A program made the translations under genes and the position numbers. The notes beneath the pieces were generated by a model, which made no database searches, was not told the origin of the DNA, and saw nothing but the letters and a program-made list of their open reading frames with translations. This document shows, piece after piece, positions 2,157-20,542 of a stretch of 28,313 nt of DNA (position 1 is the stretch's first letter; each line of letters opens with the position of its first letter). Location: positions 1-28,313 of the IMG/VR virus record IMGVR_UViG_2721755712_000003. One strand, written 5' to 3'. This stretch comes from a virus (lineage: Duplodnaviria > Heunggongvirae > Uroviricota > Caudoviricetes).

Positions 2157-2160
2157 TTTG

Positions 2161-2493: not shown

Positions 2494-2549
2494 ATAATCT
2501 GCCTCCTTTGGCTCTCTACTAGCTGACGTTTGTAACAAAACATTTTGAT

Positions 2550-2579
2550 TTTATCAGACTTTTTATTGATATGTGTCAA
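2550..2579 (-). promoter_or_regulatory. candidate sigma70 promoter for the zinc-ribbon operon (TTGACA, 18-nt spacer, GATAAA)
   Basis: Minus-strand TTGACA is the reverse complement of 2574-2579 and GATAAA of 2550-2555, about 50 nt upstream of the start codon. Pattern match only. Confidence 0.3.
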
Positions 2580-3001: not shown

Positions 3002-3262
3002 TTAATCCTGAGGTAAAGGCAAACTCATCTGATTGTTTCCCCTGTGTGAAGCTGGCAGCTCATGCCACGGGATACCTTCTGATGAGTGAACGCCGGAGGC
3101 GTGTTTCGATGTGAATTTATGGAAAGCTTCCAGTGTTGAGAAGCATACGCCGCATTCCAGATTGTTACACTGGTAATACTTTTGCCGCACGGTGTTTGAA
3201 TCATTTTCCGGACGACTGGTGCGGATACGGGCAGATGCGCCACAAAGCGGACAACGGAACAT
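3002..3262 (-). CDS. ogr: Ogr/Delta-type zinc-finger late-gene transcriptional activator
   Basis: 86 aa, MFRCPLCGASARIRTSR...YYQCNNLECGVCF with the C-x2-C...C-x4-C arrangement typical of P2 Ogr. GGGAGG SD before ATG at 3260-3262. Confidence 0.9.
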   Translation of the reverse strand: MFRCPLCGASARIRTSRPENDSNTVRQKYYQCNNLECGVCFSTLEAFHKFTSKHASGVHSSEGIPWHELPASHRGNNQMSLPLPQD

Positions 3263-4149: not shown

Positions 4150-5370
4150 TGTAGATTCAATTGGTCAACGCAACAGTTATGTGAAAACATGGGGTTGCGG
4201 AGGTTTTTTGAATGAGACGAACATTTACAGCAGAGGAAAAAGCCTCTGTTTTTGAACTATGGAAGAACGGAACAGGCTTCAGTGAAATAGCGAATATCCT
4301 GGGTTCAAAACCCGGAACGATCTTCACTATGTTAAGGGATACTGGCGGCATAAAACCCCATGAGCGTAAGCGGGCTGTAGCTCACCTGACACTGTCTGAG
4401 CGCGAGGAGATACGAGCTGGTTTGTCAGCCAAAATGAGCATTCGTGCGATAGCTACTGCGCTGAATCGCAGTCCTTCGACGATCTCACGTGAAGTTCAGC
4501 GTAATCGGGGCAGACGCTATTACAAAGCTGTTGATGCTAATAACCGAGCCAACAGAATGGCGAAAAGGCCAAAACCGTGCTTACTGGATCAAAATTTACC
4601 ATTGCGAAAGCTTGTTCTGGAAAAGCTGGAGATGAAATGGTCTCCAGAGCAAATATCAGGATGGTTAAGGCGAACAAAACCACGTCAAAAAACGCTGCGA
4701 ATATCACCTGAGACAATTTATAAAACGCTGTACTTTCGTAGCCGTGAAGCGCTACACCACCTGAATATACAGCATCTGCGACGGTCGCATAGCCTTCGCC
4801 ATGGCAGGCGTCATACCCGCAAAGGCGAAAGAGGTACGATTAACATAGTGAACGGAACACCAATTCACGAACGTTCCCGAAATATCGATAACAGACGCTC
4901 TCTGGGGCATTGGGAGGGCGATTTAGTCTCAGGTACAAAAAACTCTCATATAGCCACACTTGTAGACCGAAAATCACGTTATACGATCATCCTTAGACTC
5001 AGGGGCAAAGATTCTGTCTCAGTAAATCAGGCTCTTACCGACAAATTCCTGAGTTTACCGTCAGAACTCAGAAAATCACTGACATGGGACAGAGGAATGG
5101 AACTGGCCAGACATCTAGAATTTACTGTCAGCACCGGCGTTAAAGTTTACTTCTGCGATCCTCAGAGTCCTTGGCAGCGGGGAACAAATGAGAACACAAA
5201 TGGGCTAATTCGGCAGTACTTTCCTAAAAAGACATGTCTTGCCCAATATACTCAACATGAACTAGATCTGGTTGCTGCTCAGCTAAACAACAGACCGAGA
5301 AAGACACTGAAGTTCAAAACACCGAAAGAGATAATTGAAAGGAGTGTTGCATTGACAGATTGAATCTACA
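4150..5370 (+). mobile_element. IS30 insertion sequence, complete (1221 bp), flanked by 2-bp target duplication AG
   Basis: Left end TGTAGATTCAATTGGTCAACGCAAC at 4150; right end is its imperfect inverted copy (22 of 25 matches) ending at 5370. AG at 4148-4149 and 5371-5372. Length equals canonical IS30. Confidence 0.95.
4212..5363 (+). CDS. insI: IS30 transposase
   Basis: 383-aa ORF MRRTFTAEEKASVFELWKNGTGFSEIANILG... recognised as the E. coli IS30 transposase (HTH N-terminus, DDE core). Confidence 0.95.
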   Translation: MRRTFTAEEKASVFELWKNGTGFSEIANILGSKPGTIFTMLRDTGGIKPHERKRAVAHLTLSEREEIRAGLSAKMSIRAIATALNRSPSTISREVQRNRGRRYYKAVDANNRANRMAKRPKPCLLDQNLPLRKLVLEKLEMKWSPEQISGWLRRTKPRQKTLRISPETIYKTLYFRSREALHHLNIQHLRRSHSLRHGRRHTRKGERGTINIVNGTPIHERSRNIDNRRSLGHWEGDLVSGTKNSHIATLVDRKSRYTIILRLRGKDSVSVNQALTDKFLSLPSELRKSLTWDRGMELARHLEFTVSTGVKVYFCDPQSPWQRGTNENTNGLIRQYFPKKTCLAQYTQHELDLVAAQLNNRPRKTLKFKTPKEIIERSVALTD

Positions 5371-5794
5371 AGTGCCTTTTTCTGTCAGCGGTTCTCCCTT
5401 CCAGCCAATGAGAACCGTCAGGCGCGCGCCCCGTGGCGGTAGCTGCAACTGACCATCCGCATCATCCAGCGTGATGGTGAGCTGGTCCGCCTCAAATCCC
5501 CGGTTGTCGGTCAGTGACAGGCTCATCAGGCGCTCTGCCACGCCTGACAGCGTTTTACCCTCCGCGAGAATATCAAAATCCGGCATTTTTACGGGGTCTG
5601 TGCCCTGACTGAGCAATTGCATGGTGGTGTCGGTCATCTGCTCCCTCCCTGTGCGGCATGGTCGCATGTGCGTGCGGAGGGGGTTACTGCTTTTTGTTGT
5701 CGCCGTGGCGAGAGAACGGCGCAGGGGTGAGATTACGCGCGTGGTGGGTGATGATTGTTGCCGAATCATTTAACGGATACAAGGGGCTGAAGCT

Positions 5795-6979
5795 ATGAGT
5801 GAAACTCGTTTTCATGGTGCCCGTGTTACGGAAAATACCGACCTGGTAACAGCGATTAACGATGTTGATTCCAGCGTTATCGGTATCGTGGCAACGGCGG
5901 ATGATGCGGACGCGAAGCTGTTCCCGCTGAACAAGCCCACACTGCTGACCCGCGTCAATGACGTGCTGGGAAAATGCGGGACAACGGGGACGCTTTATCG
6001 TGCGCTTAAGGCCATCGCAGACCAGGTGAGTACAAAGGTGATCGTCGTTCGCGTGGCTGAACACAAAGAAGAAGACGGAAAAACGCAGGATCAACTGGTT
6101 ATCGGTGGTTCTGAATCTGACGGCAGCTATACGGGGATGTATGCGCTGCTTGTTGCAGAGCAGGATGAAAGCATCGGATACCGTCCGCGTATTCTGGCCG
6201 CGCCGGAGCTGGACACGGAGGCGGTAACAAAATCCCTGTGCGTGATTGCGGGTAAACTGCGCGCGTTTGTGTATGCCTCATGTCACGGCTGTAACACGAT
6301 GGCTGAGGCGATTACCTACCGCCAGAAATTCAACGAACGTGAGGTGATGCTCTTATGGCCGGACTTCATCGCCTACAACCCGAAAAGTGGCAAAAACGAA
6401 ACGTTCCCCGCGCCTGCCTATGCGTGCGGCCTTCGTGCGTACATTGACCATGAGCAGGGTTGGCACAAATCGCTGTCCAACGTTCCGGTTAAAAATGTGC
6501 TGGGGATGTCCAGGCATGTGTTCTGGTCGTTGCAGGCCGAAGACAGTGATGCCAACAGCCTCAACAACAAAGAAATCACGACCATTATTCGTCGCAACGG
6601 GTTCCGCTTCTGGGGCAACCGCACACCGGAAACGAACGCCTACATCTTTGAGGTGTATACCCGAACCGCACAGGTGCTGGCTGATTCAATTGCGGAAGCG
6701 CAGTTTGAAACCATCGATAGTCCACTGACGCCTGCGAACGTGAAGGATGTTATCAGTGCCATCAGGGCAAAACTGGATTCACTGGTGACTGCCGGGAAAC
6801 TGATTGGGGCGTCGTGCTGGTATGACGTGGTGGATAACAGCACCACGAATTTACGTCAGGGGCGTGTGCGTATTCGCTACAAATATACGCCCGTTCCTCC
6901 GCTGGAAGACATGGAGCTTTACCAGTCGTTTACTGATGAATTCTTTGGTCCCGCATTTGCGGTGCTGGGAGGTGCCTGA
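5795..6979 (+). CDS. FI: contractile tail sheath protein
   Basis: 394 aa, AAGGGG SD; conserved blocks FPLNKP, WPDF, GFRFWGNRT, YKYTPVPPLE matching P2 gpFI. On the opposite strand to the other late genes. Confidence 0.95.
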   Translation: MSETRFHGARVTENTDLVTAINDVDSSVIGIVATADDADAKLFPLNKPTLLTRVNDVLGKCGTTGTLYRALKAIADQVSTKVIVVRVAEHKEEDGKTQDQLVIGGSESDGSYTGMYALLVAEQDESIGYRPRILAAPELDTEAVTKSLCVIAGKLRAFVYASCHGCNTMAEAITYRQKFNEREVMLLWPDFIAYNPKSGKNETFPAPAYACGLRAYIDHEQGWHKSLSNVPVKNVLGMSRHVFWSLQAEDSDANSLNNKEITTIIRRNGFRFWGNRTPETNAYIFEVYTRTAQVLADSIAEAQFETIDSPLTPANVKDVISAIRAKLDSLVTAGKLIGASCWYDVVDNSTTNLRQGRVRIRYKYTPVPPLEDMELYQSFTDEFFGPAFAVLGGA

Positions 6980-7491
6980 TGGCTGTACCAAAACATCTTC
7001 GCTTTTTTACGCTGTTTGTGGATGGTGAAAACGAAGTGGGTAAGGTGACGTCCGTCACCCTGCCTAAACTGACGCGCAAAACCGACAGCTACCGGGGTGG
7101 TGGCATGATGGGTGCGGTAAGTATTGATCTCGGTCTGGACGACTCCGCGCTTGATGCGAGCTTTGTCATGGGGGGCGCAGTTCGTGAGCTGTTCCTTAAG
7201 TATGGCGGCACGATTGACGGCACGCTACTGCGTTTTGCGGGTGAATACTACACCGATGCAGAAAGCGACCTGTATGAAGTCGAAATGCGCGGACGCGTGA
7301 CGGAAATTGATATGGGGGAAGCCAAACAGGGCGAAGCCACATCACACACTTACGCCATTAAAAACACCTACTACAAGCTGAGTGTTAACGATCGTCCGTT
7401 GTGGGAGATTGACCTGCTGAACTTCATTTACCGGAAGGACGGCAAGGACATTGTGCCCGATCGCATCCGTTCCGCGCTTGGGCTTGGCTGA
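6979..7491 (+). CDS. FII: tail tube protein
   Basis: 170 aa; ATG overlaps the FI stop (TGATG), the usual FI-FII position and size. Confidence 0.9.
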   Translation: MAVPKHLRFFTLFVDGENEVGKVTSVTLPKLTRKTDSYRGGGMMGAVSIDLGLDDSALDASFVMGGAVRELFLKYGGTIDGTLLRFAGEYYTDAESDLYEVEMRGRVTEIDMGEAKQGEATSHTYAIKNTYYKLSVNDRPLWEIDLLNFIYRKDGKDIVPDRIRSALGLG

Positions 7492-7545
7492 TAAGTAATA
7501 TGCAGGCGGCGCAGTGCGTCGCCTCTGACTGAAAGGAGTTTCCTG

Positions 7546-7911
7546 ATGAAAGAGACGAAAAACATCGATACCGAAAACACGGTAGTTGCTGACACTGTGA
7601 AAGAAACCAGTGAGCGTGGCGTAAAACTTACCCAACCAATTGAGCGAGGCGGCGAAAAAATCACGTATGTGGAGATCACCGGGGCTATTGAGCAGGCTGG
7701 ATCTCTGCGAGATTTGTCGCTGTCTGATGTGCTGAATCTGAAAGCGGAATCCATGTTTACGCTGCTGTCACGAGTGACATCACCGCGACTGGATGAAGTG
7801 ACGATCAAAAAAATGGCATCCCGTGACTTTATTCAGTTATGTGTGGTTGCCGTAAATTTTTTGAGCGGTGCGGACTCTGGCGGGAAGAACGAACAGGCGA
7901 CGGAAGCCTGA
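7546..7911 (+). CDS. E: tail assembly chaperone gpE (zero-frame product)
   Basis: 121 aa, AAGGAG SD 7 nt upstream; lies between tube and tape-measure genes and contains the slippery heptamer near its 3' end. Confidence 0.8.
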   Translation: MKETKNIDTENTVVADTVKETSERGVKLTQPIERGGEKITYVEITGAIEQAGSLRDLSLSDVLNLKAESMFTLLSRVTSPRLDEVTIKKMASRDFIQLCVVAVNFLSGADSGGKNEQATEA

Positions 7912-8075
7912 TCACGGTTGTGTGCTTTGAGCACATAGAAGACTTTGTGGCAGATATTGCCGTTATTTTTAACTGGTCGCCCGCCGAAATCTTCATGATG
8001 ACGCCCGGCGAAGTGGTTAGCTGGCGTGAGCGGGCGGCACTTCGCAGCGGGAATGCAGACAATGAAGACTCTTGA
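7546..8075 (+). CDS. gpE+E' chaperone fusion made by programmed -1 frameshift at 7857-7863
   Basis: Zero-frame codons AAT TTT TTG (N F L). A -1 slip on T TTT TTG reads TTT GAG CGG..., which is exactly ORF 7839..8075 (FFERCGLW...), ending with TGA at 8073-8075. Confidence 0.75.
7857..7863 (+). promoter_or_regulatory. T-TTT-TTG slippery heptamer for the E/E' -1 frameshift
   Basis: Read directly; frame relationship verified by coordinate arithmetic (E in frame 1, E' in frame 0). Confidence 0.75.
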
Positions 8076-10869
8076 TATCCGGGTCGCTTTCAGCGCCGTT
8101 GACAGGCTGACCCAGCCTGCCGAAAACGCCCGCCGCCTGATGGGGCAGTTTGGTGACTCCATCCAGCGAACGCAGGGGGCGATCAAAAATCTCGAGCGTC
8201 AGGCGCGTTCATTTGAGCGCGCCCGCGACGCTGTCAGTAAAGCGGATGCGGGTATCGTGAAAGCACGACGCCAGCTTAACGCCCTTAATCAGTTACAACG
8301 CACGGGTACAGTGCTCAGCGAAAAACAACAAAAGCTGATGCAGCAGTTAAGCACCCGGCTTGAACGCCTGAATGAATCGCGCACGCGGGAAATTCAGAAA
8401 ATGCGGGAGCTTGGCGGAGAGCTGAAACGCCACGGCATTTCCCTGACAGGCAGCGATAACACCATCCAGCAGGCCATCAGACGCACCGAACAGTACAACA
8501 ATCAGCTTGAACGCGAACGGCAGGCGCTTGCGCGTGTAACGCGGGCGCGTGAGCGGTATTCGCGCGCGCAGGAAACAGCGGGAAAACTGAAAACAGGTGG
8601 TGCACTGGCAATTGGTGCGGCAGCGGCGGGCGGCTATGCTGCCGGGCGTTTTTTGCAGCCTGCGATCGGGTTCGGGAAAGAGATGTCCCGCGTTCAGGCA
8701 CTGACGCGAATCGACCAGAACAGCCCGCAGTTTAAGGCGCTGCGTGAGCAGGCGTTAAAACTTGGCTCTGAAACGCAGTTCACCGCAGGCGATGCCGCCA
8801 GTGGGCAGGCATTTCTGGCAATGGCTGGCTTCACACCGCAGGCCATTCAGGCTGCGCTTCCCGGCGTGCTGAGCATGGCAACGGCTGGCGGTATGGACCT
8901 TGGCGAGACGGCAGATATTGGCTCAAATATCCTGACGCAGTTCGGCCTCTCCGCTGACCAGATGGACCGGGTCGGTGACACGCTTACAGCAGTGTTTACC
9001 CGTACTAACACTGACCTTCGCGCACTGGGCGAAACCATGAAATATGCAGGTCCGGTGGCGGGTAAGCTGGGAATATCGCTGGAGCAGGCCGCAGCGATGG
9101 CGGGCGTGCTGGCGAATATGGGTATCAGAGGGAGTGATGCCGGGACGGCAATGCGTGCCAGCCTGGCTCGTCTGGCATCACCGCCAAAGGCGGCAGCAGA
9201 AGCGCTGAAAGAGCTGGGTGTGTCCGTCTCTGATGCGAACGGCAAAATGCGCCCGATGGAAGATGTGCTGGCCGACCTTTATAAAGCCACCCGTAAATAC
9301 GGGGAAGTTGACCGGGTATCGTTCTTTAAGGACATTGCCGGGGAAGAGGCTTTCACGTCGTTTATGGCTCTCGTTGATGCGGCGGGTGACGGCTCCCTGC
9401 CCAAACTGAGAAAAGAACTTGAGGGCGCACGCGGTGAGGCTGAACGCACGGCAAAGGTTATGGCCAATAACCTTGATGGCGACCTGAAATCACTCGGCAG
9501 TGCATGGGAAGGGCTGCGTATCCGCATTGCAGATCTGATTGATGGTCCGCTGCGTTCTGTCACGCAGTGGCTCACGCGGGTGGTCTCAAAGGTGACGGCG
9601 CTGGCACAGGCCCATCCGGTACTGACGCGCCAGTTACTGATAGCAGGCGGTGCGCTGCTGGCAATGACTGCAACGGTTGGCTCGTTGTCGCTGGTTATTG
9701 GAGTGCTTCACGGGAAGCTGGCCACGTTGCGTCTTGGTTTTTCTCTCCTGACCGGATCAATGAATGCTGTCAGGCTCCTGCCAGCACTATGGGGAATGGT
9801 GACGGGTTCCGTTTCGTTACTGGGGGGCGCTATCGGGGCGCTGTTCAGCCCGGTCGGATTGATTGCTGCTGCGTTTGTGGCTGCGGCAGTTCTCATCTGG
9901 AAATACTGGGAACCCATCAAGGCGTTTTATGCCGGGGTGTTCAGCGGGATTATGGAGCGGCTGGCCCCGTTACGCGAAACCTTTGAACGGTTTGGTCCTG
10001 TTTTTGACGCAATCGGAAGCGGGATAAGTCAGGTGTTTAACTGGTTTAAATCGTTGCTGTCACCGATGGAGTCCAGCAAGGAAACGCTGGATAAATGTAC
10101 CAGTGCTGGCGAGATATTCGGTAACGTTCTTGGCGGTGCGTTACAGCTTGTTCTGACGCCCGCAAAAATGTTGCTGGATACGCTGGCGTGGATACTTGAA
10201 AAACTCGGTGTGCTTCCGGATGAAGCGGAAAGGGCGAGAAAGAAAATCGAAGACGCACAGCGTGCGGCCATTCTTCAGGACAAGGTTGCTCTGTTTCAGG
10301 GAGACATTGCGAAAATCAATCCGCCGAAGTCTGCGGAAAATGGCAATGGCACCGGAGGTGATAAACCCAAAGACAATAAACCGCTCACAGACAGCAATAC
10401 CGGTACGCTACGCAGACTCAGCAAAATTGCTGATAACACAGGTAAGCTGGTTGATGAGACGAAAAAACGTATTGGCCCCGGCGATATTGTCTTTAAGAAC
10501 CTGCCCCGCGCACTTGCCGTTCGTGGGGAGTGGCAGGAGCGGAAGATTGTGCAGGTCAGTAAGCCTGCCCCCGCAATTAATATCACACCCGTGGTCCCGG
10601 CTCCGCTGCCTCCGGCGCTGGTCCCTGTTGTTGCGGCCAGCTCCCGCCCGGTGGCGGAGGCCATACGATCTCCAGTGGCATCAGTTCCTGTAACTTCCCG
10701 TAACCGGGAGCCTGTTGCCTCCGGATTTGGTGGTGAAATTCATGTTCATCTGCATAACGTTGTTACGCAGAATCCCCGCGAACTGGCGAAACTGGTCGGT
10801 GAAATGGTCAGGGCAGAAATGGAACGGCGCGCCCGTGCCGGGCGTGGCAGTTTTTACGATAAAGATTGA
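8053..10869 (+). CDS. T: tail tape measure protein
   Basis: About 938 aa, coiled-coil N-terminus, central hydrophobic block, Ala/Gly-rich segments, Pro-rich C-terminus. Start taken at ATG 8053 (or 8062), overlapping the E' end. Confidence 0.9.
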   Translation: MQTMKTLDIRVAFSAVDRLTQPAENARRLMGQFGDSIQRTQGAIKNLERQARSFERARDAVSKADAGIVKARRQLNALNQLQRTGTVLSEKQQKLMQQLSTRLERLNESRTREIQKMRELGGELKRHGISLTGSDNTIQQAIRRTEQYNNQLERERQALARVTRARERYSRAQETAGKLKTGGALAIGAAAAGGYAAGRFLQPAIGFGKEMSRVQALTRIDQNSPQFKALREQALKLGSETQFTAGDAASGQAFLAMAGFTPQAIQAALPGVLSMATAGGMDLGETADIGSNILTQFGLSADQMDRVGDTLTAVFTRTNTDLRALGETMKYAGPVAGKLGISLEQAAAMAGVLANMGIRGSDAGTAMRASLARLASPPKAAAEALKELGVSVSDANGKMRPMEDVLADLYKATRKYGEVDRVSFFKDIAGEEAFTSFMALVDAAGDGSLPKLRKELEGARGEAERTAKVMANNLDGDLKSLGSAWEGLRIRIADLIDGPLRSVTQWLTRVVSKVTALAQAHPVLTRQLLIAGGALLAMTATVGSLSLVIGVLHGKLATLRLGFSLLTGSMNAVRLLPALWGMVTGSVSLLGGAIGALFSPVGLIAAAFVAAAVLIWKYWEPIKAFYAGVFSGIMERLAPLRETFERFGPVFDAIGSGISQVFNWFKSLLSPMESSKETLDKCTSAGEIFGNVLGGALQLVLTPAKMLLDTLAWILEKLGVLPDEAERARKKIEDAQRAAILQDKVALFQGDIAKINPPKSAENGNGTGGDKPKDNKPLTDSNTGTLRRLSKIADNTGKLVDETKKRIGPGDIVFKNLPRALAVRGEWQERKIVQVSKPAPAINITPVVPAPLPPALVPVVAASSRPVAEAIRSPVASVPVTSRNREPVASGFGGEIHVHLHNVVTQNPRELAKLVGEMVRAEMERRARAGRGSFYDKD

Positions 10870-10881
10870 GGAGTCATGGCC

Positions 10882-11370
10882 ATGATGATGATCTACGGCA
10901 TGTTTGTTTTTGAGCTGCGCACGCTGCCGCATCAGCAGTTACAGCAAAACAAAAGCTGGCGGCATGTGAAAAATGAACGCGTTAACCGTTCAGCAAGCTG
11001 GCAGTATATCGGTGCAGGTGATGATCGCATCGTTCTTTCTGGTGTGCTTTATCCTGAAATTACAGGTGGCGAAGTGTCGCTGTCGCTGCTGACCACGCAG
11101 GCGTATACAGGACGACCCTGGCCTTTGATTGATGGCGTCGGGCAGATTTACGGCATGTATGTCCTGACCGGAACGAACACGACCCGTTCCGAGTTTGATC
11201 GCTACGGTAAGGCGAAAAAGATAGAATTTTCACTGACCCTTGAACGCTGTGATGAGGATTTGCGGGAGCGCCTGCAATCCTCATCGTTCAGCGATATGCT
11301 GTCCGGCTTCAAAGATAAAGTGACATCATCCCTTAACAGCGCGGCCAGTTCAGTTAAAGGGCTGTTCTGA
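10882..11370 (+). CDS. U: tail protein gpU
   Basis: MMMIYGMFVFELRTLP... matches the P2 gpU N-terminus as remembered (MMMVLGLFVFMLRT). GAGGAG SD 8 nt before ATG 10882. Confidence 0.9.
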   Translation: MMMIYGMFVFELRTLPHQQLQQNKSWRHVKNERVNRSASWQYIGAGDDRIVLSGVLYPEITGGEVSLSLLTTQAYTGRPWPLIDGVGQIYGMYVLTGTNTTRSEFDRYGKAKKIEFSLTLERCDEDLRERLQSSSFSDMLSGFKDKVTSSLNSAASSVKGLF

Positions 11371-11376
11371 TTTAAT

Positions 11377-11410
11377 GCTGGCCACTCATACCTGGTAATA
11401 AGTGGCCAGT
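11377..11410 (+). terminator. hairpin downstream of U (9-bp stem CTGGCCACT/AGTGGCCAG, 14-nt loop)
   Basis: Read directly; no U-run follows, so terminator function is uncertain. Lies at the proposed right inversion breakpoint. Confidence 0.3.
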
Positions 11411-11532
11411 CTTAACACTCACCATTTGATTGCACCCGCGTTAACGATTTGTTACTGGGTATCAGACATGCTGGATAGCCAGTAGAAACATACCATTAAA
11501 ATTATTACAATAATTGGTCACATGATTATCTT

Positions 11533-12020
11533 ATGCTGAATAATAGAGATATGAATATTAATGAACTTAAAGACTGTATTCACTATGAAGTAATCGGTAG
11601 CGAGCGTCCTTTCTCCTGGCGAAAGGCAATTGTTCGCGCAATAAAACATAGAAGACTTCGTTATTTATTTTGGTGGCGCATAGCCAAATACCTTTTTGAT
11701 AAAGGCGGATACTGCCGGAAGATTGCGGGGAAAATAGAACGTTTCATTCTTGATAAATATAATGTAACAGTCCCTTTAACTGTAAATATAGGGAAAGGCT
11801 TTGATATTTCTTATCTCAACAGTGTTGTTATCGGTCACAAAGTAACAATCGGTGAAAATTGTTCAATAAAACCGGGGGTAACTATTGGGCTACGTGGTGA
11901 TTTTAATGATATGGATATTGTTATAGGACATAATGTGACCATTGGTTGTAATGCCACCATTCTTGGTGGCAAAGTGCGTATAGGAAACAATGTCACAATA
12001 GGTGCTCATGCATTGGTAAC
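11533..12020 (+). pseudogene. left-handed beta-helix (hexapeptide-repeat) sugar O-acetyltransferase-like gene, WcaB/CysE-like, probably 3'-truncated
   Basis: AT-rich ORF with tandem [LIV]-G-x-x-x-x-[IV] hexapeptide repeats (VVIGHKVTIGENCSIKPGVTIG..., IVIGHNVTIG..., VRIGNNVTIGAHALV). Base composition switches at about 12010-12020, beyond which the ORF is antisense of the fibre gene. Confidence 0.6.
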
Positions 12021-12465
12021 CACCACCTTCAAGAACTTCAAGGAGTCCCTGACCATAACTTCCTTCTTCCGGATAGTTGCGGTCAAATGAAGCGATTGAG
12101 CCACTACTGTTTCGCCATAAACCAAGATGCTCTGCGCCTCCGAGCGTGTTCAGGTCAATGGTTGTGCTCAGGGGGCGTGTTGCAGACTGAACCTGACGCC
12201 AGTAACTCCACGGACCGTCTGAACCATTCCATGTGCCAGAAAGGTTGCGCATATAAACATTGCCTGTTCTGGTGGTGTAACGCTGCATTCCTGCAAAATT
12301 ACCGCCATTGAATACCTCCAGTACACCGACTGCACCGTCTTCAGGGAAATTTTTAGCAGCCGTCGCGTTAGTGGATGTAGCTTTAGACCAGACGCCAAGA
12401 TAAGCCTTAACGGGACCAAATGTATTCAAGTCAGCATCAAGCGGCATTTCGCCATTGTTTTTCAT
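12021..12465 (-). pseudogene. tail fibre C-terminal receptor-binding fragment (N-terminal shaft missing, C-terminus cut)
   Basis: Two tandem copies of a fibre-tip-like motif (DLNTFGPV...GVLEVFNGGNFAGMQRYTT...W..W and DLNTLGG...GLLEVLEGGG); the second copy breaks off at about 12021. Starts 5 bp after the J stop with no gpI gene between. Confidence 0.6.
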
Positions 12466-12470
12466 AAACG

Positions 12471-13316
12471 TCAGGCTGGTAACGCCAACATTGTCCAGAA
12501 AAGCGCCCTTATCTCCACGCGTTGCACACCGTGCACATGCAGTGCGGCAGCAATGGCGGACAACGCCACGTCCTGACCGATAAGCCCCTGCTCAGCCAGC
12601 CACTTCCTGAACGACGATTCAGCCGCAGCCAGAATAGGTTCGGATTCCGGGCCGGGATAAAAGTACAGTTTTGCATTCAGCCGCCATGTCACGATTCTGG
12701 CGCTCTGTACGGTCAGGCGGTCGGCCACCGGGCGGGTATCCTCTGCATTCAGAACGGCACGAACGGTATTAAGCAACGCCTCCGTTGCTGTGCCGTCGCC
12801 TTCAGTGGACAGGATGGAAACCGTCACACAGGCCGGAGACGGGCTGATGGCCCGCGCATCACGCACCAGACCGCTGGCGCTGCGTGCAAAATACTCGTAT
12901 GCACCTGACGGGCCAGCAACACTCAGGCCGTCGTACGCCCGCTGCGCCCGCAGTCTCAGCGAGGTGTCGCTCTCCATCACCGCGTCGGTGGTATCCGTTG
13001 CCGGAGTGATAACCAGGCGCTTTGTGTTCATATTGCCCGCGAGGTTGTCCAGGTCTGTCCCGGCGCTGTGGCTTAACATGCAGGCGCGTGCACCCTCATT
13101 GACCCGCTGGCGTAACAGCATTTCACGAAACGCTGTTGTCTGGGCGATAACGTTCAGGGGTTCCGATTCCAGCTCCAGCGCAGCGGAAACGGCTTCACGC
13201 TGTTCGGCGGGATAAGCTGCAATCATCATGGCCTTTGTGTCAGCCAGAATTGCTTCAAAGTCAGGCTCCGCGATGATGGCGGGTTCTGGTAACTGGGAAA
13301 GGTCAACGGCGGGCAT
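12471..13316 (-). CDS. J: baseplate assembly protein gpJ
   Basis: 281 aa, follows W in canonical order; slightly shorter than the roughly 300 aa expected, so the C-terminus may be affected by the adjacent deletion. Confidence 0.8.
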   Translation of the reverse strand: MPAVDLSQLPEPAIIAEPDFEAILADTKAMMIAAYPAEQREAVSAALELESEPLNVIAQTTAFREMLLRQRVNEGARACMLSHSAGTDLDNLAGNMNTKRLVITPATDTTDAVMESDTSLRLRAQRAYDGLSVAGPSGAYEYFARSASGLVRDARAISPSPACVTVSILSTEGDGTATEALLNTVRAVLNAEDTRPVADRLTVQSARIVTWRLNAKLYFYPGPESEPILAAAESSFRKWLAEQGLIGQDVALSAIAAALHVHGVQRVEIRALFWTMLALPA

Positions 13317-13319
13317 GAT

Positions 13320-13670
13320 TTACTCCCTCAGCGTGATGGTTAACTCAACATTCTGCATGGTCTGCATGACAGTGCCCGACAGCGTCACCCCGGCGCGGCC
13401 TCCCGCTTTCCAGACAACGTCAATGGCATCCAGGGCAATGCGGGGTTCCCATCGTGTCAGCGCAATCACGGCAGCACTCATGCATTGCAGACGCGTGGTG
13501 TTATTCATGGGTTCGTCAATCAAATCAGGCACAAGGCTGCCATATTCCCGTCGCATAACCCGGCTTGCCAGCGGGGTGGTCAGGATGTCCCTGACTGACT
13601 GTTTCAGGTGCTCCATATCGTTCAGGTTTCCCGTTCCGTCCGGGTTCATTCCTGTGTAGCGGGTTGTCAC
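13320..13670 (-). CDS. W: baseplate protein gpW
   Basis: 116 aa; position and size between V and J; start overlaps the V stop. Confidence 0.85.
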   Translation of the reverse strand: MTTRYTGMNPDGTGNLNDMEHLKQSVRDILTTPLASRVMRREYGSLVPDLIDEPMNNTTRLQCMSAAVIALTRWEPRIALDAIDVVWKAGGRAGVTLSGTVMQTMQNVELTITLRE

Positions 13671-14248
13671 TGTGGGCCTCCTGTCGAATCGCTGCCGCCT
13701 TTCACGCCACCGTGTTTATGCGTATGCACTGTAATGCCGTTTGAGGTGAAGTTGCCGCCGCTGTGCGTGATATTGCCGCTCATCTTTCCTCCTTTTGTGA
13801 CGTCAAGCGTCGCCGTTCTCAGAAGGTTTGTGCATTCCACGACGGGCGTATCCAGTTTCACGCTGACGGATGCCTGTAAAGTGGCCGTTTTCATGCCGCT
13901 GGCGCTCAGTGCGCCAGCGTCCGCGTCGTAGCGGAACACCGCGCCGTCCGGCGCGCTGATCACGATTTCTTTCAGGCTTTTGCCGGGGGCCGGACTGGCA
14001 TCACTCCACAGGCTGCCAATTATCATGGCGGTTTCCGGGTTGCCGCCAATGCAGGCAATTACCACCTGTTCGCCGGGTGATGGCGGCAGCCACACATTGA
14101 AGGCTCCCGCGCGCGTGGTGTTCCAGCGCAACCAGTCTGTTTCCAGTTCGCCGCTGCGAACGCGCACGCGCCAGGACTTCTCATCAACTTCAGAGATGAT
14201 CCCGGTGCGGATGATATTGCTCAGCAGTCGCATGAGTTCTGCGCTCAC
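13667..14248 (-). CDS. V: baseplate spike protein gpV
   Basis: 193 aa, canonical position; Gly-rich C-terminus. Confidence 0.85.
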   Translation of the reverse strand: MSAELMRLLSNIIRTGIISEVDEKSWRVRVRSGELETDWLRWNTTRAGAFNVWLPPSPGEQVVIACIGGNPETAMIIGSLWSDASPAPGKSLKEIVISAPDGAVFRYDADAGALSASGMKTATLQASVSVKLDTPVVECTNLLRTATLDVTKGGKMSGNITHSGGNFTSNGITVHTHKHGGVKGGSDSTGGPQ

Positions 14249-14889
14249 CGTACAGCCTCCGCAATCCGGCCCAGCACCGTGTTATAAATCAGGCGCTCAT
14301 CTGTCTGGCTGATACCCAGCAGCTCACGTGCCGGGTAATTGGTGAAAATGCCCGGCGCAACCTGATCGCGCTCACCGAACTGATGAACGCGGGCAATACG
14401 TGCGGCCACGCCGCTGTAACCCACCGTCACACCGGAAGCATCTGCACGGGCTTTCAGGTAGCGGGCGGTGCGCAGTTTTACGAACATGGGGACGCGCTTT
14501 GTGCTGTCCTGGTTGATGCGCCGGGTGCGTATTTCCAGAAAACGGTCGATGTCATCCCGGTAAAACGTGCGGATATTGTTTTTATCCTCATCCCACCCGG
14601 TAATGGTTCGCCCGTATTTCCCCGTGTCGTGATGCCAGTTTTTCAGCGTGCGTGCTTCGTTATTCCAGATAAAGCGAATGCGTTCCTGTATCCGGGTTAC
14701 GCGGCGTCTGCGTGGTGTCCACGCGGTCCCGTCCGGCGCTTTCTGTGACCGGATACGCGCCTGCTGGGCGCGGCGTAAATCCTGTGCCAGCTTTCTGGCG
14801 ATGTTATTGATGGCCTGCTGATTCAGGCTGTCGCGGATGGCCTCAAAGGTTTCATCCACGCGGGTGAATGCCTTATCCATCGCTTTCAC
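14245..14889 (-). CDS. S: tail completion / virion morphogenesis protein, gpS-like
   Basis: Between R and V; 214 aa if started at 14889, longer than the roughly 150 aa expected, so the true start may be internal. Confidence 0.6.
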   Translation of the reverse strand: MKAMDKAFTRVDETFEAIRDSLNQQAINNIARKLAQDLRRAQQARIRSQKAPDGTAWTPRRRRVTRIQERIRFIWNNEARTLKNWHHDTGKYGRTITGWDEDKNNIRTFYRDDIDRFLEIRTRRINQDSTKRVPMFVKLRTARYLKARADASGVTVGYSGVAARIARVHQFGERDQVAPGIFTNYPARELLGISQTDERLIYNTVLGRIAEAVR

Positions 14890-15340
14890 CCCACGTCACA
14901 TCCTGGAATACATGCGACCAGTCGCCTTCGGAAGATGGCAGGCGGGGTTTTGGCTCCGGCAGGTGTTCTGCCTGCGGTGTGCCCTGACTGCTGCGCGTGA
15001 TGCGAACGCGTTCCCGCAGGGGGAGCGTAAACAGGAGATCGGCGCTGTCATCGTCATTGATAACGGCGGAAAATTTGATGTCCTGATTACGCTCAGGGTT
15101 GAGCAACAATTGTGGCTGATTTTCGGATAACCACGCCAGCAGCGGCAGCGTGAGGTCGTCCAGCTCCCCGGCGTAATCCATGACAAACATCACCATCTGA
15201 TAGCGGTAAACAAACGATGGGGTTTCTCCTGTCGTTTCAATGTTGCCGCTCTCCACGAAAATGGTGAATTTTTCCGGGTTGGCCTGACACCATCGGCATG
15301 AACGGGTCATGGCTTCACGCAGGGAATCAGTTTTCAGCAT
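14873..15340 (-). CDS. R: tail completion protein gpR
   Basis: 155 aa, the size and position of P2 gpR downstream of the lysis genes. Confidence 0.8.
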   Translation of the reverse strand: MLKTDSLREAMTRSCRWCQANPEKFTIFVESGNIETTGETPSFVYRYQMVMFVMDYAGELDDLTLPLLAWLSENQPQLLLNPERNQDIKFSAVINDDDSADLLFTLPLRERVRITRSSQGTPQAEHLPEPKPRLPSSEGDWSHVFQDVTWGESDG

Positions 15341-15617
15341 GGTTGTTATCCTCGTTGTTCAGTCGTTGCAGCCTGCGCTGTTCCAGTAATTCAATGGCCC
15401 GTTTATCCGCGTTACAGGTTTCCAGTGCATCCAGAAGGCGGTCGCCCCATATACCGAGATTTCCCCATGTGGGAGTATCAGGGAAGGGGGGAGGCGTTAC
15501 CGGTATGGTCAGCGTCTGCGGTATAAGCCGGACTGACGGCGCTGGCCGTGGCGCGTTCTGCGTGCCTGCGCAGCCTGTCAGTAAAACGAGCGTCAGGCAA
15601 AGCGTGGGCGCATTCAT
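15327..15617 (-). CDS. o-spanin (Rz1/LysC-like outer-membrane lipoprotein)
   Basis: Lipobox LLTGC, Pro-rich mature region (PPPFPDTP); overlaps the i-spanin gene out of frame. Start at M1 (15647) or M11 (15617) is uncertain. Confidence 0.6.
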   Translation of the reverse strand: MNAPTLCLTLVLLTGCAGTQNAPRPAPSVRLIPQTLTIPVTPPPFPDTPTWGNLGIWGDRLLDALETCNADKRAIELLEQRRLQRLNNEDNNHAEN

Positions 15618-15885
15618 CTTTTGCAATATCGTTGCGTAGCTGTTCACGTCTTACCTCTCCGTCCTGATTGCGTTGCTGATTTTCCACGCGGAGTTGCGCC
15701 AGCACCTGCTGCATATCCTGTACCCCGGCGCTGATAATATTCAGGGTGTCGGCGGTACTTTTCAGGGTGCTGGCCTGCGCTTCGTTTCTGGCGTTCTCCC
15801 GGCCCAGCGACCACGACAGACGCATGGATGTTCCCCATCCAGCAATCAGAAGGAAAGCGACGCCCAGCGTGGGCCAGAGCTTCAT
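15478..15885 (-). CDS. i-spanin (Rz/LysB-like)
   Basis: ATG 15883-15885 overlaps the endolysin stop (ATGA); N-terminal TM (LWPTLGVAFLLIAGWG) then a coiled-coil-like periplasmic part. Confidence 0.6.
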   Translation of the reverse strand: MKLWPTLGVAFLLIAGWGTSMRLSWSLGRENARNEAQASTLKSTADTLNIISAGVQDMQQVLAQLRVENQQRNQDGEVRREQLRNDIAKDECAHALPDARFTDRLRRHAERATASAVSPAYTADADHTGNASPLP

Positions 15886-16274
15886 GCCGGATAGGCTCCG
15901 TGTGGTAACTGAAAATGCGGTCCGTCTTTCAGGGTCTTCCAGTCGCCGCCCCATTCCACCGGAATATTCAGTTCCCGGCTGGCCTGTCTGAATGCTGCTG
16001 CGATTTTTTCGTACAGCGGCCATTCCCATGACACCTGGCTGCCGATATAAGCCACAACATCCACGGCATGTCCCGTAAGGTGGCGGCTGTTCATGGTCTG
16101 GCTCTTACCCGTGGCCACCAGTTGCTTCTGGTGGTAACGGCTGCGCAACCCTTCGGTGATACCAAAATCCACTTCCGAAATTTCCAGTGCCCGTCGGGTC
16201 ACTTTCACCAGATCAGGATTTACGCCCTGCAAATTCTTTTCGCTCCGGCTGCTGAATTTAAATGTGTTGCTCAT
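15882..16274 (-). CDS. endolysin, M15-type peptidase (L-alanyl-D-glutamate peptidase-like)
   Basis: 130 aa with SRHLTGHAVDV and WGGDW blocks typical of peptidase M15 endolysins; start overlaps the holin stop. Confidence 0.75.
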   Translation of the reverse strand: MSNTFKFSSRSEKNLQGVNPDLVKVTRRALEISEVDFGITEGLRSRYHQKQLVATGKSQTMNSRHLTGHAVDVVAYIGSQVSWEWPLYEKIAAAFRQASRELNIPVEWGGDWKTLKDGPHFQLPHGAYPA

Positions 16275-16594
16275 TCGTCCTTCTCCTTCACCCTGCGATT
16301 AAAGGCTGCAATAACCTTGTCGCGTGCTTTCTCTGCGCCCATAAAACCGATTGATGCGCCGATAAACGTCACGGCATCTTCAGGAAAACCGAAGAAGCGC
16401 AACGATCCGGCCACGGCCATGGCAAGAACGCCGCACGCCAGCGATCCCGTTACGGTCTGAACCAGTGTTCGTCCGTCATAAAGACTCATCAGCGCGGAAA
16501 TGCTGACCGCCGCGCCTACTGCATACACCGTTGGCAGGTGGTCAAAGAGCCACGCAATAACCTGCTCTGTGATCCCTGTTTGAATGGTGCTCAC
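16271..16594 (-). CDS. holin
   Basis: GTG start with GGGGAG SD, 2 nt after the X stop; about 108 aa with two or three hydrophobic helices and a charged C-terminus (KVIAAFNRRVKEKDE). Confidence 0.65.
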   Translation of the reverse strand: MSTIQTGITEQVIAWLFDHLPTVYAVGAAVSISALMSLYDGRTLVQTVTGSLACGVLAMAVAGSLRFFGFPEDAVTFIGASIGFMGAEKARDKVIAAFNRRVKEKDE

Positions 16595-16596
16595 TG

Positions 16597-16797
16597 CTAC
16601 TCCCCCCACAACTGAATCATTTCTCGTTTCTTCTTCTCCGGCTCCGGCATCTCCACTTCCTGCCCGGCGTCCAGAAATACCTGCTGACAGAGTCCGGGGT
16701 TGGCATCCAGCACCTTTTCGGTGACGCCCTGCGTCGTGCCGTAGTACCGGAAACAGAGCGAATCCACGGTGTCGCCTTCCAGTACCTTCACTTTCAT
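16597..16797 (-). CDS. X: tail protein gpX (LysM-like)
   Basis: MKVKVLEGDTVDSLCFRYYG...ANPG... resembles P2 gpX as remembered (LQGDTLDAICVRYYG...ANPGL). Start overlaps the L stop. Confidence 0.85.
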   Translation of the reverse strand: MKVKVLEGDTVDSLCFRYYGTTQGVTEKVLDANPGLCQQVFLDAGQEVEMPEPEKKKREMIQLWGE

Positions 16798-17291
16798 CAG
16801 CACAACTCCGCAAAGATTCGCGGGCGGCACAGAATGTCAGAGATGGCCCAGCTCACATCACGCCACAAATCCGATGTCTGTATATCCAGAGCGTCCGCCC
16901 GGCGGTCGCCCTTGTCCGTTGTGTCTGCATCACGATAACGCTCCAGAATCAGGGCGCGCGTGGCGGTATAAACAGCATTGCGCCAGTGCCAGAGATTGAC
17001 GCTTTCTCCGTTAATTACGGGTGCCGGAACATCGGCCAGCGTCTGATGGCCAGCCGCCTGCTGTTCCTGCTGCCATGCTTCCAGCTCGCGGGTAACGTGT
17101 GCCACGGCCCCAGTGGCGGTATGCAGCAGGCGGGAGGTGGTCACACGGCCCGGCAGTCGTACCGCCAGACGCAGCTCACGCAGCACAATATCCGGCCAGA
17201 ATGCACCCGCTGAAATACGGGTATCACCATCATCGGTATCGGTGATGTCGTCCTCTGCGGGTCCGGGGTTGGTTCTGGCAACCATACTCAT
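16797..17291 (-). CDS. L: head completion/stabilisation protein gpL
   Basis: About 165 aa, downstream of M; GGAGTGA SD before ATG 17289-17291. Confidence 0.85.
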   Translation of the reverse strand: MSMVARTNPGPAEDDITDTDDGDTRISAGAFWPDIVLRELRLAVRLPGRVTTSRLLHTATGAVAHVTRELEAWQQEQQAAGHQTLADVPAPVINGESVNLWHWRNAVYTATRALILERYRDADTTDKGDRRADALDIQTSDLWRDVSWAISDILCRPRIFAELC

Positions 17292-17392
17292 TGGGTTCAC
17301 TCCTGAAAAAATCGGGCGGTGGGTGCGCGGTGTAAACGGTCACGGAGTCAAACCGGAACACCGCGCACGCCGCCCGCTGACGGGGTCAGTCG

Positions 17393-18193
17393 TTAACCGC
17401 GCTTCGCCTTCTGCGTCGCGGTGGTTTTTCGTGTTGCAGGCTTCCGCGTTGTCTTTTTACTTTTGCTGCTTTCGTCCTGCGCCTGCGGTGTGCTGGCGTC
17501 TTCTGGTTCGGCTGCGGAATCGGCTTTTTTCAGGGCGCGGGAAAGGGTTGCAATCTCGCGTTTCACACCTGCGTTCGGGTTCAGGTGCATCGCTTCGCGC
17601 AGCAGCTTCAGTGATGAGGCCATGCTGTCCGCATCGCTCAGGCCACGGCGGGCAAAGGCGCACGCCTTGCATAATTTGGCGCGCACTTCGTCCGGCATAT
17701 CCTGGTTGGCGACAATTTCCCAAAGTGTGTCCAGTGGTTCGATAAAGGCGGACAAATCCGCGTCGGCATCCGTCCCGGCCTGCGTCAGTACCGGGTTGCA
17801 GATTTCTTCGGTCAGTACCGTGGCAGCAGTACGGCCAAAGTTATCCGGCATGATGAGGTTGTGACGGACCACATACGCACCAATACGCAATGCCAGCGGA
17901 AGATCGCCGCAGTCAATCGCCCACACCATCAGCGTGGCAATCACCTCATCTTGCTGCCCGCCGTCAGCCTCCAGCGTTCCTTCAATCCAGCCGGAAAAGT
18001 CCGGTAACAACTCTTTTTTGATGGCGGCTTTGGCGCTTCTGGCCTGTACGCCCTTAAGTCGGGCCTGTGCCAGACGCAGACGATACAGCACCTCTTCATG
18101 CGCGGTACGTGCGGCGTGATCCACGCCTTCATTCGCCCGGCCTGCGCGCTGCGCCATCACGTTCTGCCAGTGTTGCTGTGCAGGGGTAATCAT
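17393..18193 (-). CDS. M: terminase small (endonuclease) subunit gpM
   Basis: 266 aa, GGAGAGAAAG SD, basic C-terminus; canonical position after N. Confidence 0.9.
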   Translation of the reverse strand: MITPAQQHWQNVMAQRAGRANEGVDHAARTAHEEVLYRLRLAQARLKGVQARSAKAAIKKELLPDFSGWIEGTLEADGGQQDEVIATLMVWAIDCGDLPLALRIGAYVVRHNLIMPDNFGRTAATVLTEEICNPVLTQAGTDADADLSAFIEPLDTLWEIVANQDMPDEVRAKLCKACAFARRGLSDADSMASSLKLLREAMHLNPNAGVKREIATLSRALKKADSAAEPEDASTPQAQDESSKSKKTTRKPATRKTTATQKAKRG

Positions 18194-18210
18194 TCTTTCT
18201 CTCCGTTACA

Positions 18211-18229
18211 GGCGGGCATGATGCCCGCC
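18211..18229 (-). other. 19-bp palindrome GGCGGGCAT-G-ATGCCCGCC between N and M
   Basis: Read directly; candidate stem-loop in the N-M intercistronic RNA. Confidence 0.3.
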
Positions 18230-18238
18230 GTGAGTTGA

Positions 18239-19243
18239 TTAGCTGTCGGCGAACTTCAGGCCTGTGACCATCGCGCACTTGCCATAGTCTTCAACGACAT
18301 AAGCGTCATTGATGGACTGGTAGGTGGCGATGCGGTTGTATTCCGGCTCGTCTTTCATCAGGCGACGCATTGAGCCTCTCTGCCAGTAAATTGACAGGTT
18401 GTTGAATGAGGTGATCAGCATCGTTGCATCCGGGAAGAACGGCGCAAGGAATACATCCAGCCCACCAATGGTGCGCGATGACAGGATGAGCTGTCCGGCG
18501 AGTAATTCCGCATTGGGATTCTGGCCGCTGATGCTGTTCAGCACGGGCAGACGCAGCGAGTTAAACAGGTTGCGCCCCATAATCACCACGAGGTCGTCTG
18601 CTTCCTTGTGCCATTCATCCAGCAGGGATGAGCGCGCGTCCTGTACCAGTGCATCAGCGTTCGCATACTTACCCGCGTGCGCCACTGTGTTGTCCATGTT
18701 GCGGGAAGTCAGCGTCACGTCATTCATTACGCGTTCACTGGCATCGGTTCTGATGTGCTCCAGCCAGCCCACGTTAACGTCCTGAAGCAGCTTGTTGGTG
18801 CTGAAATTGGATTTTTCCGCGTGTGATGTGCCGTTAAAGCCGATCATGATGCGGTCAAGCGCCACCTGCCGGGCAATCTGTGTGCTGATGCGCGACTGAA
18901 AATCGCTGTGAGCCGCCCAGGCATCAAGCTTCGGGTATGAAATAAACGTGTCGTAGTTCACCTGTTCACACTGGTACTGACGAGCCTTCATATCGACAGC
19001 GTTAATCGGATTACGGCGATCTGTGCCGTCATAACTGGTATTCGTGCGCGCAATCGGCCCGGTGGTGTCCAGGAGAACTTTTTCGCCTTTCTGGTCAGTT
19101 ACACCGATTACATTAATTCTTTTCGTAAATTCGGTACTTTCCTTTGAAGCGTTTTCAAAACGCTGTTGTACCGATGGATTGACGGTAAATCGCGATACCA
19201 GCGCAGAAACCGGGATATTGTTAAGCGACGCCTGCTGCGTCAT
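18239..19243 (-). CDS. N: major capsid protein gpN (5' end clipped relative to P2 N)
   Basis: 334 aa; FTVNPSV, RINVIGV and DAYVVEDYG blocks match P2 gpN. Homologous reading continues about 11 codons upstream of the first ATG into the P ribosome-binding site with no start codon. Confidence 0.9.
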   Translation of the reverse strand: MTQQASLNNIPVSALVSRFTVNPSVQQRFENASKESTEFTKRINVIGVTDQKGEKVLLDTTGPIARTNTSYDGTDRRNPINAVDMKARQYQCEQVNYDTFISYPKLDAWAAHSDFQSRISTQIARQVALDRIMIGFNGTSHAEKSNFSTNKLLQDVNVGWLEHIRTDASERVMNDVTLTSRNMDNTVAHAGKYANADALVQDARSSLLDEWHKEADDLVVIMGRNLFNSLRLPVLNSISGQNPNAELLAGQLILSSRTIGGLDVFLAPFFPDATMLITSFNNLSIYWQRGSMRRLMKDEPEYNRIATYQSINDAYVVEDYGKCAMVTGLKFADS

Positions 19244-19288
19244 GTAGCAGCCCAGCTTGTTACGGGCATTAATTACTCAGGGGGAGCA

Positions 19289-20542
19289 ATGATTCAGGAC
19301 GCTTTTGTGCGCCAGCGTGCGCGGCAACTTTACTGGCAGGGTTATCCGCCCGCAGAAATATCACGTCTGATGGGAATAAACCCGAACACGATTTATGCGT
19401 GGAAAAAACGCGACCAGTGGGATGAAACGCCCCCCGTGCAGCGTGTCACGCAGTCCATCGATGCGCGCCTCATCCAGCTTACTGAAAAACAGAATAAAAC
19501 AGGCGGTGACTTTAAGGAAATAGACCTGCTGACCCGGCAGCTTAAAAAGCTGCATGATGGCCAGCCGGATGTGATGGCCGCAGGAAAGAAAGGCCGGGCG
19601 AAAAAACTTAAAAATCATTTCACGCCGGAACAGATTGCCGCACTGCGGGAAAAAATCATCAGCAGGCTGGAGTGGCATCAGCGGGGCTGGTTTGACTCCC
19701 TGACACTTTGCAGGGAAGCCGGGATACGTAACAGGATGATCCTGAAATCCCGACAGATTGGGGCGACCTGGTATTTTGCACAGGAAGCTCTGCTGATGGC
19801 GCTGCGTGACGATGTGGCGCAACCTTACCAGCGTAACCAGATTTTTTTGTCTGCGTCGCGTCGTCAGGCGTTCCAGTTTAAAAGCATTATTCAGAAGGTC
19901 GCGGCTGAAGTTGATGTGGAGCTGAAAGGGGGCGATAAAATCATCCTCTCCAACGGCGCAGAGCTGCATTTTCTCGGCACTTCTGCTGCGTCGGCACAGT
20001 CCTATACGGGCAATTTTTATTTTGATGAATTTTTCTGGGTCAGTCGCTTTGCTGAACTGCGCAAGGTGGCTGGCGCTATGGCAACCCTCAGCGGACTGCG
20101 GCGCACCTACTTCTCCACGCCATCCACCGAAACGCACGAGGCGTACGCCTACTGGAACGGCGACCGCTGGAACGAGAAAAAGGCCTCGCATAAACGCCAG
20201 CGTTTTTCTGTGGACTGGAAAACGCTGCATAACGGGCTTATCTGCCCTGACCGGACTTGGCGGCAAATTGTCACGCTGGAAGATGTGGTTAATCACGGCT
20301 GGAAACACACCGATATCGACGAAATTCGTGATGAAAACACCGAAGACGAGTTCCTCAATCTCTATATGTGTGAGTTTGTCCGCGAAGGGGAATCGGCATT
20401 TAACCTGAATATCCTGATTGGCTGCGGTGTTGACGGATACGACGACTGGAAAGACTGGAAACCTTTTGCTCCCCGCCCGATGGGGAATCGTCCGGTATGG
20501 ATTGGGTATGACGCAAACGGCAGCAGTGGCAACGGCGACACC
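19289..20542 (+). pseudogene. P: terminase large (ATPase) subunit gpP, 3'-truncated at about aa 418
   Basis: GGGGGAG SD before ATG 19289; terminase-like sequence up to ...GYDANGSSGNGDT, after which the ORF is the antisense of gene A. Confidence 0.85.

Follow-up and report, generated by a model that had tools for sequence, protein, structure and literature searches.

In the window, as we call the whole 28,313-nucleotide stretch of viral DNA analysed here, an open reading frame of 185 aa on the + strand (11533-12090) overlaps a convergent one of 191 aa on the - strand (11890-12465). An earlier note had taken the first for a truncated cargo gene of a P2-like phage, joined tail-to-tail to a truncated tail-fibre gene by a deletion. 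The locus raises the question of whether this overlap is indeed a deletion scar and, if so, what the cargo gene encoded before it was clipped. Our reading, to which we give a probability of about 0.9, is that the window holds a decayed P88-like prophage in which two deletions occurred and the cargo gene was clipped. For the ancestral protein, modification of a surface glycan is the likeliest role, at much lower odds.

Gene order of the prophage and the cargo slot

By megablast against complete E. coli genomes, the window was found to be a degraded prophage sitting between flk and pdxB. It is a decayed E. coli prophage of the P88 type (Xuanwuvirus, Peduoviridae): its J region is 96-97% identical to phage P88 and to Xuanwuvirus P884B11, and it shares the gene order of P88. 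P2 carries its D-U-T-E-FII-FI block on the same strand as the cargo slot and the genes G, H, I and J. In P88, the FI-FII-E-E'-T-U block is inverted relative to P2 and converges on G-H-I-J, and the slot between U and G contains a DNA invertase and an alternative fibre tip. The inverted FI-U block of P88 also adjoins a tail gene on the opposite strand. The following features of the window bear on the question.

5795-6979, + strand: FI, followed by FII, E, T and then U, all on the + strand and upstream of the cargo gene
10876-11370, + strand: tail gene gpU (Pfam Phage_P2_GpU, 1.5e-38), the upstream neighbour of the cargo gene
11371-11550, + strand: AT-rich intergenic leader (G+C 0.372), with a hairpin at 11372-11415 and a promoter-like site at 11483-11511
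11551-12018, + strand: native part of the cargo gene, codons 1-156 of 181, hexapeptide-repeat (LbH) acyltransferase-like, with an alternative ATG at 11533
12016-12018, no strand: junction A, a 3-bp microhomology (GTA); the blastn segments overlap by 3 bases and the flanks were read directly
12019-12090, + strand: foreign read-through tail of 23 codons plus stop (12088-12090), antisense of fibre gene H
12019-12508, - strand: internal piece of tail-fibre gene H, from the last base of codon 218 to codon 383 of 885
12509-12514, no strand: junction B, a 6-bp microhomology (TTATCT), from blastn and direct reading
12515-13316, - strand: truncated baseplate gene J, 267 native codons (Pfam Baseplate_J, 3e-19)
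from 12471 onwards, - strand: J, W, V, S and R, tail and baseplate genes of the P2 family

The reference used to define the deletions was E. coli FDAARGOS_1077, whose copy of the prophage, also located between flk and pdxB, is near-identical and more complete. There, the + strand holds in order the sheath and tube genes, E, E', T, U and a gene for a 181-aa acetyltransferase, and the convergent - strand holds Tfa (205 aa), fibre H (885 aa), I, J, W, V, S and R. As in this locus and in phage P88, gpU closes the FI-FII-E-E'-T-U block of the window. The cargo gene had been placed between the fibre genes and FI. The fibre side of this placement is right, but the other neighbour is U, with FI lying several genes away; U is the flank because the FI-U block is inverted in the P88-like lineage, and not because of the scar.

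'Moron position 2' of P2 is the slot between G and FI (PMC3573123). The G side of this position is matched here by the slot that follows the fibre-assembly gene directly downstream and converges with it. In the intact relative, the cargo gene, whose G+C content is 0.379, converges on Tfa with a 37-bp overlap of the 3' ends, so that both the atypical composition and the opposite orientation next to G are seen there, G itself being deleted in the window; the other flank is U instead of FI. The P2 record also contains an ORF of 181 aa in the equivalent slot (6031-6576), which has no Pfam match and is not an LbH protein, and the equal length is coincidental.

The stop codon of gpU is directly followed by an 18-nt inverted repeat, 83% complementary and with an 8-nt loop. 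This hairpin could plausibly be the terminator of the FI-U operon. The promoter-like site, found by a scan as a match to the consensus only, reads TAGAAA-17-TACAAT. In other phages, the leader is 97-100% conserved along with the cargo gene. No Rfam match was obtained in a scan of positions 11300-12600.

Two deletions in the fibre and baseplate module

By blastn, positions 6183-12018 of the window correspond to positions 1-5836 of the FDAARGOS_1077 locus with one mismatch (at 7588), 12016-12514 to 8001-8499 (100%), 12509-19271 to 9772-16534 (100%) and 19270-20383 to 17550-18663 (100%). Identity over the first three of these segments is 99.98-100%. At junction A, 2,167 bp are gone, comprising the last 25 codons and the stop of the acetyltransferase gene, the whole of Tfa and codons 384-885 of H, which cost H its 3' 1,509 nt (the C-terminal 502 codons). 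At junction B, 490 bp away, 1,278 bp are gone, comprising codons 1-217 of H, gene I in full and about 31 codons at the end of J. Apart from these 3- and 6-bp microhomologies, neither IS ends nor att-like sites nor invertase crossover repeats were found at the junctions. Deletion is the parsimonious direction of change, because the genes of the relative are complete and in frame and the window has fragments lacking starts or stops. The two microhomology-mediated deletions inactivated the fibre/baseplate module and clipped the cargo gene, and we are close to certain that the scar arose by deletion in a decaying E. coli prophage.

The loss of G, of the end of the fibre gene and of the end of the cargo gene, as the earlier note had proposed, is exactly what the comparison with FDAARGOS_1077 brings out. 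The point near 12020 at which both frames had been said to lose sense was right within 2-4 bases, acetyltransferase homology ending at 12018 and fibre homology beginning at 12016. The switch in base composition at the junction was also borne out, with a G+C content of 0.376 over 11551-12018 and 0.498 in the fibre fragment (0.519 for the whole window), as was the mutual antisense read-through: the + ORF runs on for 23 codons to its stop, and 129 nt are read through by the - ORF before it ends at 11890.

The ancestor carried an AT-rich LbH acyltransferase-like moron of 181 codons, directly downstream of the fibre-assembly gene and convergent with it, with the 37-bp overlap. An illegitimate, GTA-mediated deletion fused its ORF to antisense fibre sequence, and a TTATCT-mediated one, 490 bp on, cost the prophage gene I together with the beginning of H and the end of J.

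The surviving piece of H has neither its native start nor its native stop and is 100% identical to positions 8004-8499 of the FDAARGOS_1077 locus. It had been called a truncated fibre tip; it is instead a mid-fibre piece (codons 218-383 of 885), bounded on its other side by deletion B, which the earlier note did not mention. Nor does the fibre naturally end at ...LEVLEGGG, the intact protein going on with YSRTQRYTT... for 502 more residues. RefSeq annotates the piece as a pseudogene, 'pyocin knob domain-containing protein', missing its N- and C-terminus. The J gene is likewise marked as a pseudogene by RefSeq: after its 267 native codons, the ORF continues for 14 out-of-frame codons into the H piece, up to a stop at 12471, whereas intact J has 298 aa in FDAARGOS_1077. 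As a consequence of the two deletions, the prophage is therefore unable to make fibres or a complete baseplate.

The chimeric cargo gene

The AT-rich hexapeptide-repeat ORF reported at 11533-12090 is indeed present. It matches Pfam Hexapep (PF00132) with 47.7 bits against a cut-off of 27, in two stretches that both lie in the retained part. Its start is likely the ATG at 11551 (MNINELK), which is the start used by the homologues and by RefSeq, and the native part has for this reason 156 aa and not the 160 previously given. Up to V156, it is identical at the protein level to WP_001418511.1 of FDAARGOS_1077. The remaining 23 residues of the 179-aa chimeric protein are foreign and are the exact antisense of fibre codons 361-383. 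They stand in for a native C-terminus of 25 residues with a conserved DIP motif, so that the intact protein ends ...GAHALV-LHDIPDDSTFITKFQSEVICSSSRT and the version in the window ...GAHALV-TTTFKNFKESLTITSFFRIVAVK.

None of the homologues ends at the same residue: the full-length ones have 181 aa and continue as the intact protein does. In the family alignment, P161 is nearly invariant and all other members end ...V-x-x-D-[IV]-P... Because the segment with this proline of the D-[IV]-P motif is lost, the chimeric LbH protein of 179 aa is most likely inactive. RefSeq lists it, under WP_244443963.1, as an ordinary CDS, a 179-aa 'serine acetyltransferase' with a start equivalent to 11551; this name, which is over-specific, labels here a chimeric and probably dead ORF.

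The ORF, counted as 179 or as 185 aa, could be taken for a complete, naturally occurring allele that has a different C-terminus and overlaps its neighbour in the normal way. Its 179 aa are close to the 181 aa of the intact protein, intact copies also overlap their convergent neighbour, by 37 bp, and RefSeq finds nothing unusual in the CDS. However, the last 23 residues are fibre antisense, every other family member has the ...V-x-x-D-[IV]-P... ending, the base composition changes at the junction and the neighbour is a fibre fragment without start or stop. The comparison with FDAARGOS_1077 refutes this explanation, which we regard as very improbable. An assembly artefact or chimera at the junction is more improbable still: we found no point in its support, and the scarred arrangement, with the same junctions, is present at 100% identity over 10800-13400 in nine independent complete E. 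coli genomes, two of which have an additional IS1 inside the acetyltransferase gene. The deletion scar is ordinary prophage decay. It resembles other cryptic P2-like remnants of E. coli, with their microhomology deletions of 2-6 bp, IS insertions and pseudogenised structural genes, of which it is a textbook case.

Identity of the intact cargo protein

The best NCBIfam matches of the intact protein are EpsC (81.2 bits against a cut-off of 150; 7e-23), CysE (TIGR01172, 70.7 against 210.65, 1e-19; PRK11132, 44.5 against 397) and WcaB (PRK10191, 62 against 196; TIGR04016, 59.9 against 194.65; 4e-17), yet on these model scores it is none of them. The description of the ORF as WcaB/CysE-like thus holds as far as the best sequence matches are concerned, but all of them are far below the family cut-offs. 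A full-length match (E = 3.3e-78) pairs residues 1-180 of the intact protein with positions 4-184 of the 185-position profile of phrog_2154, a family of phage proteins with no known function. In the PDB it matches CysE enzymes, the best with E = 6e-12.

In CysE, Asp143 and His158 are catalytic, and Arg192 and His193 bind serine. With E. coli CysE numbering, which is reproduced for D143 and H158 by an offset of 8 from the chain numbering of 8i04, the Asp143/His158 dyad aligns to Thr73/Tyr88 of the cargo protein (window codons at ~11767 and ~11812), and Arg192/His193 align to Met/Asp in the intact protein. No SATase_N Pfam match was found in the cargo protein. It shares with CysE, WcaB and EpsC the short helical N-terminal part, the LbH coils, as predicted for it, and the ...D-[IV]-P... 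C-terminal segment, and differs from them in its scores, in the Thr/Tyr dyad, in the Met/Asp pair and in having no SATase_N. A metabolic CysE is ruled out by the model score, the catalytic dyad and the serine-binding residues, and 'serine acetyltransferase' is an over-annotation, since the model scores and the dyad of the clade fail CysE. Canonical O-acetyl transfer is doubtful too, because of Thr73/Tyr88 at the dyad positions.

A homologue search returned about 50 relatives of about 180 aa, almost all from Enterobacteriaceae. In the alignment, the place of His is taken by Tyr, and that of Asp by Thr, Lys or Val, in all members with at least 53% identity, and a clade at 45-50% identity has His together with Glu or Asp. 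The two dyad-aligned positions co-vary across the family. Between intact copies of the Tyr clade, dN/dS is 0.04-0.08, and the protein is therefore under purifying selection.

An AF2 monomer model of the intact protein, built with an alignment of 26 sequences, had a pLDDT above 90 in the N-terminal helices only (~residues 10-70) and of 50-60 over the repeats. Searching the PDB by Foldseek with this model and its poor repeat region gave nothing at E<=0.001, the top non-significant rows being serine acetyltransferases.

Distribution and association with the fibre tip

DNA of the cargo family was found in 183 of 5,426 complete E. coli genomes, and 59 of the places are on plasmids. In six loci, the gene is directly downstream of the Tfa gene and convergent with it:

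P88-like prophage of FDAARGOS_1077 (L003)
phage vB_EcoM-613R2 (L002)
97-kb P1-like plasmid of E. coli FDAARGOS_497 (L009)
49-kb plasmid-prophage (L010)
Hafnia phage yong2 (L011)
metagenomic myovirus (L007)

In a seventh locus (L005), the gene is at the fibre/Tfa end of a prophage, with three other genes between it and Tfa. A Kosakonia copy lies at a prophage edge, beside the integrase.

Compared with FDAARGOS_1077, identity in the P1-like plasmid is 95% for the LbH protein, 91% for Tfa and 91% for the ~220 residues at the end of the fibre, the rest of the fibre shaft being unrelated there; in L005 the figures are 48, 54 and 56%. The three parts diverge together in the loci compared, which suggests a cassette that may move among P2-like, P1-like and other myoviruses. 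In the P1-like plasmid, the fibre and Tfa genes of the cassette are separated by an inserted gene for a macro-domain protein (6224-7126 of L009). IS1 was found within the acetyltransferase gene in hits H1 and H8, which belong to the scarred lineage, and in H52, which belongs to the intact one, by independent insertions. These suggest that IS1 targets the AT-rich gene and that some hosts can do without it.

Possible function of the ancestral protein

It is possible, at somewhat less than even odds, that the ancestral protein was a lysogen-expressed modifier of the surface glycan bound by the fibre tip, with a role in superinfection exclusion or lysogenic conversion. Expression of a soluble modifier in the lysogen is suggested by the opposite orientation of the gene, its AT-rich composition and the promoter-like site upstream. 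By analogy, a lysogenic-conversion function is plausible. One precedent is NeuO of prophage CUS-3, the LbH-family polysialic-acid O-acetyltransferase of E. coli K1, which modifies the surface of the lysogen. Like the cargo protein, it is a phage-borne LbH-family protein, and it offers a functional precedent; it differs in belonging to a P22-like phage, in being phase-variable via heptanucleotide repeats and in having a known substrate.

The nearest precedent for this position is neaT, an acyltransferase moron carried by phi-b0847, a P2-like prophage of E. coli CFT073, which alters surface behaviour (PMC3573123). It too consists of one gene, markedly AT-rich, that lies immediately downstream of G and runs opposite to the tail genes, is dispensable for phage growth and encodes a predicted envelope acyltransferase (PMC3573123). 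However, NeaT is an integral-membrane Acyl_transf_3 protein (PF01757) without homology to the cargo protein, which is predicted to be a soluble LbH protein. In JL22, a P1-like phage-plasmid, an LbH 'serine acetyltransferase', sacF, lies beside tfa and replaces part of the S/U fibre region of P1 (PMC9603915). In contrast to the window copy, which is clipped by a deletion, the JL22 copy is intact, and it is distant, with 37% identity to the cargo protein by tblastn (95% for the closer P1-like plasmid copy). The JL22 paper states that it is unknown why the acetyltransferase is present (PMC9603915), and it was the only one retrieved when the literature was searched for a prophage 'serine acetyltransferase' beside tfa that had been characterised, the function being left open there as well.

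More tentatively, a mobile host-range cassette might include the protein as its third component, next to the fibre tip and the Tfa chaperone; it might then mask the receptor as an enzyme suited to the tip it accompanies, working by a non-canonical LbH or a non-catalytic mechanism. The clade has exchanged the Asp-His of the CysE type for a conserved Thr/Lys-Tyr pair under strong purifying selection. Receptor masking would make the lysogen resistant to phages using the same tip. If the receptor of the tip were modified, the three genes would form a compact 'bind it and mask it' module of host range and exclusion, which would matter when superinfection immunity and the host range of phages are to be predicted. 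As an uncharacterised, dyad-less LbH partner of a tip and its chaperone, the element is of moderate interest.

It is also conceivable, though we think it unlikely, that the intact protein was not a modifier of a surface glycan at all and served instead in anti-phage defence, as a metabolic serine acetyltransferase or as a non-catalytic beta-helix binder, for example of the fibre or its chaperone. The replacement of Asp-His by Thr/Tyr in a protein that is under strong purifying selection fits a changed or non-catalytic activity, and P2-like phages do carry defence genes as morons (PMC9122126). On the other hand, the paper on the P2 defence hotspot illustrates it with old and tin and mentions neither an acetyltransferase nor tail fibres (PMC9122126), and no family of PADLOC-DB 2.0 matched the cargo protein at E<=1. 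In P2, old and tin lie elsewhere in the genome. The metabolic variant fails on the same three counts by which CysE was ruled out above, and a role in the virion or its assembly is opposed by the orientation and the AT-rich composition of the gene, which argue for expression in the lysogen. A glycan modifier expressed by the lysogen is kept here as the likeliest role.

Further decay and other features of the prophage

A third deletion relative to FDAARGOS_1077, of 1,017 bp and with a TA microhomology, was found at 19270/19271. By the coordinates of the FDAARGOS_1077 locus, scaffold gene O was lost with it, as were the beginnings of the capsid gene and of the gene for the large terminase.

Strain 99-3165 has further truncations, annotated in the terminase and in replication gene A. 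The segment 17239-18642, present in the window and in FDAARGOS_1077, is deleted in this strain; by the coordinates of the FDAARGOS_1077 locus, it spans M, which encodes the small terminase, together with the 3' part of the head-completion gene and the capsid gene's 3' end. Also absent from strain 99-3165 is the segment 4152-5369, which sits between the truncated D gene and FI of the window and includes a + strand ORF (4212-5363) for a 383-aa transposase with HTH_38 and rve domains, which, reading these domains, we take to be IS30-like. Judged from such sequence comparisons, the strains hold different stages of decay of one prophage at one locus, and the scar documents its stepwise decay in situ across E. 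coli strains.

The left end of the prophage (1250-4048) was placed by its correspondence with positions 7670-10529 of locus L001. It contains a T6SS-associated TagO gene (as annotated), a zinc-ribbon gene, hok/gef, ogr and D, the latter a gene of the VgrG/Pvc8 family of only 801 nt. In the early region, on the - strand, two Rfam matches above the gathering score were obtained, a C4 antisense RNA at 22554-22641 (87 bits) and the Hfq-binding sRNA isrK at 22677-22751 (66 bits).
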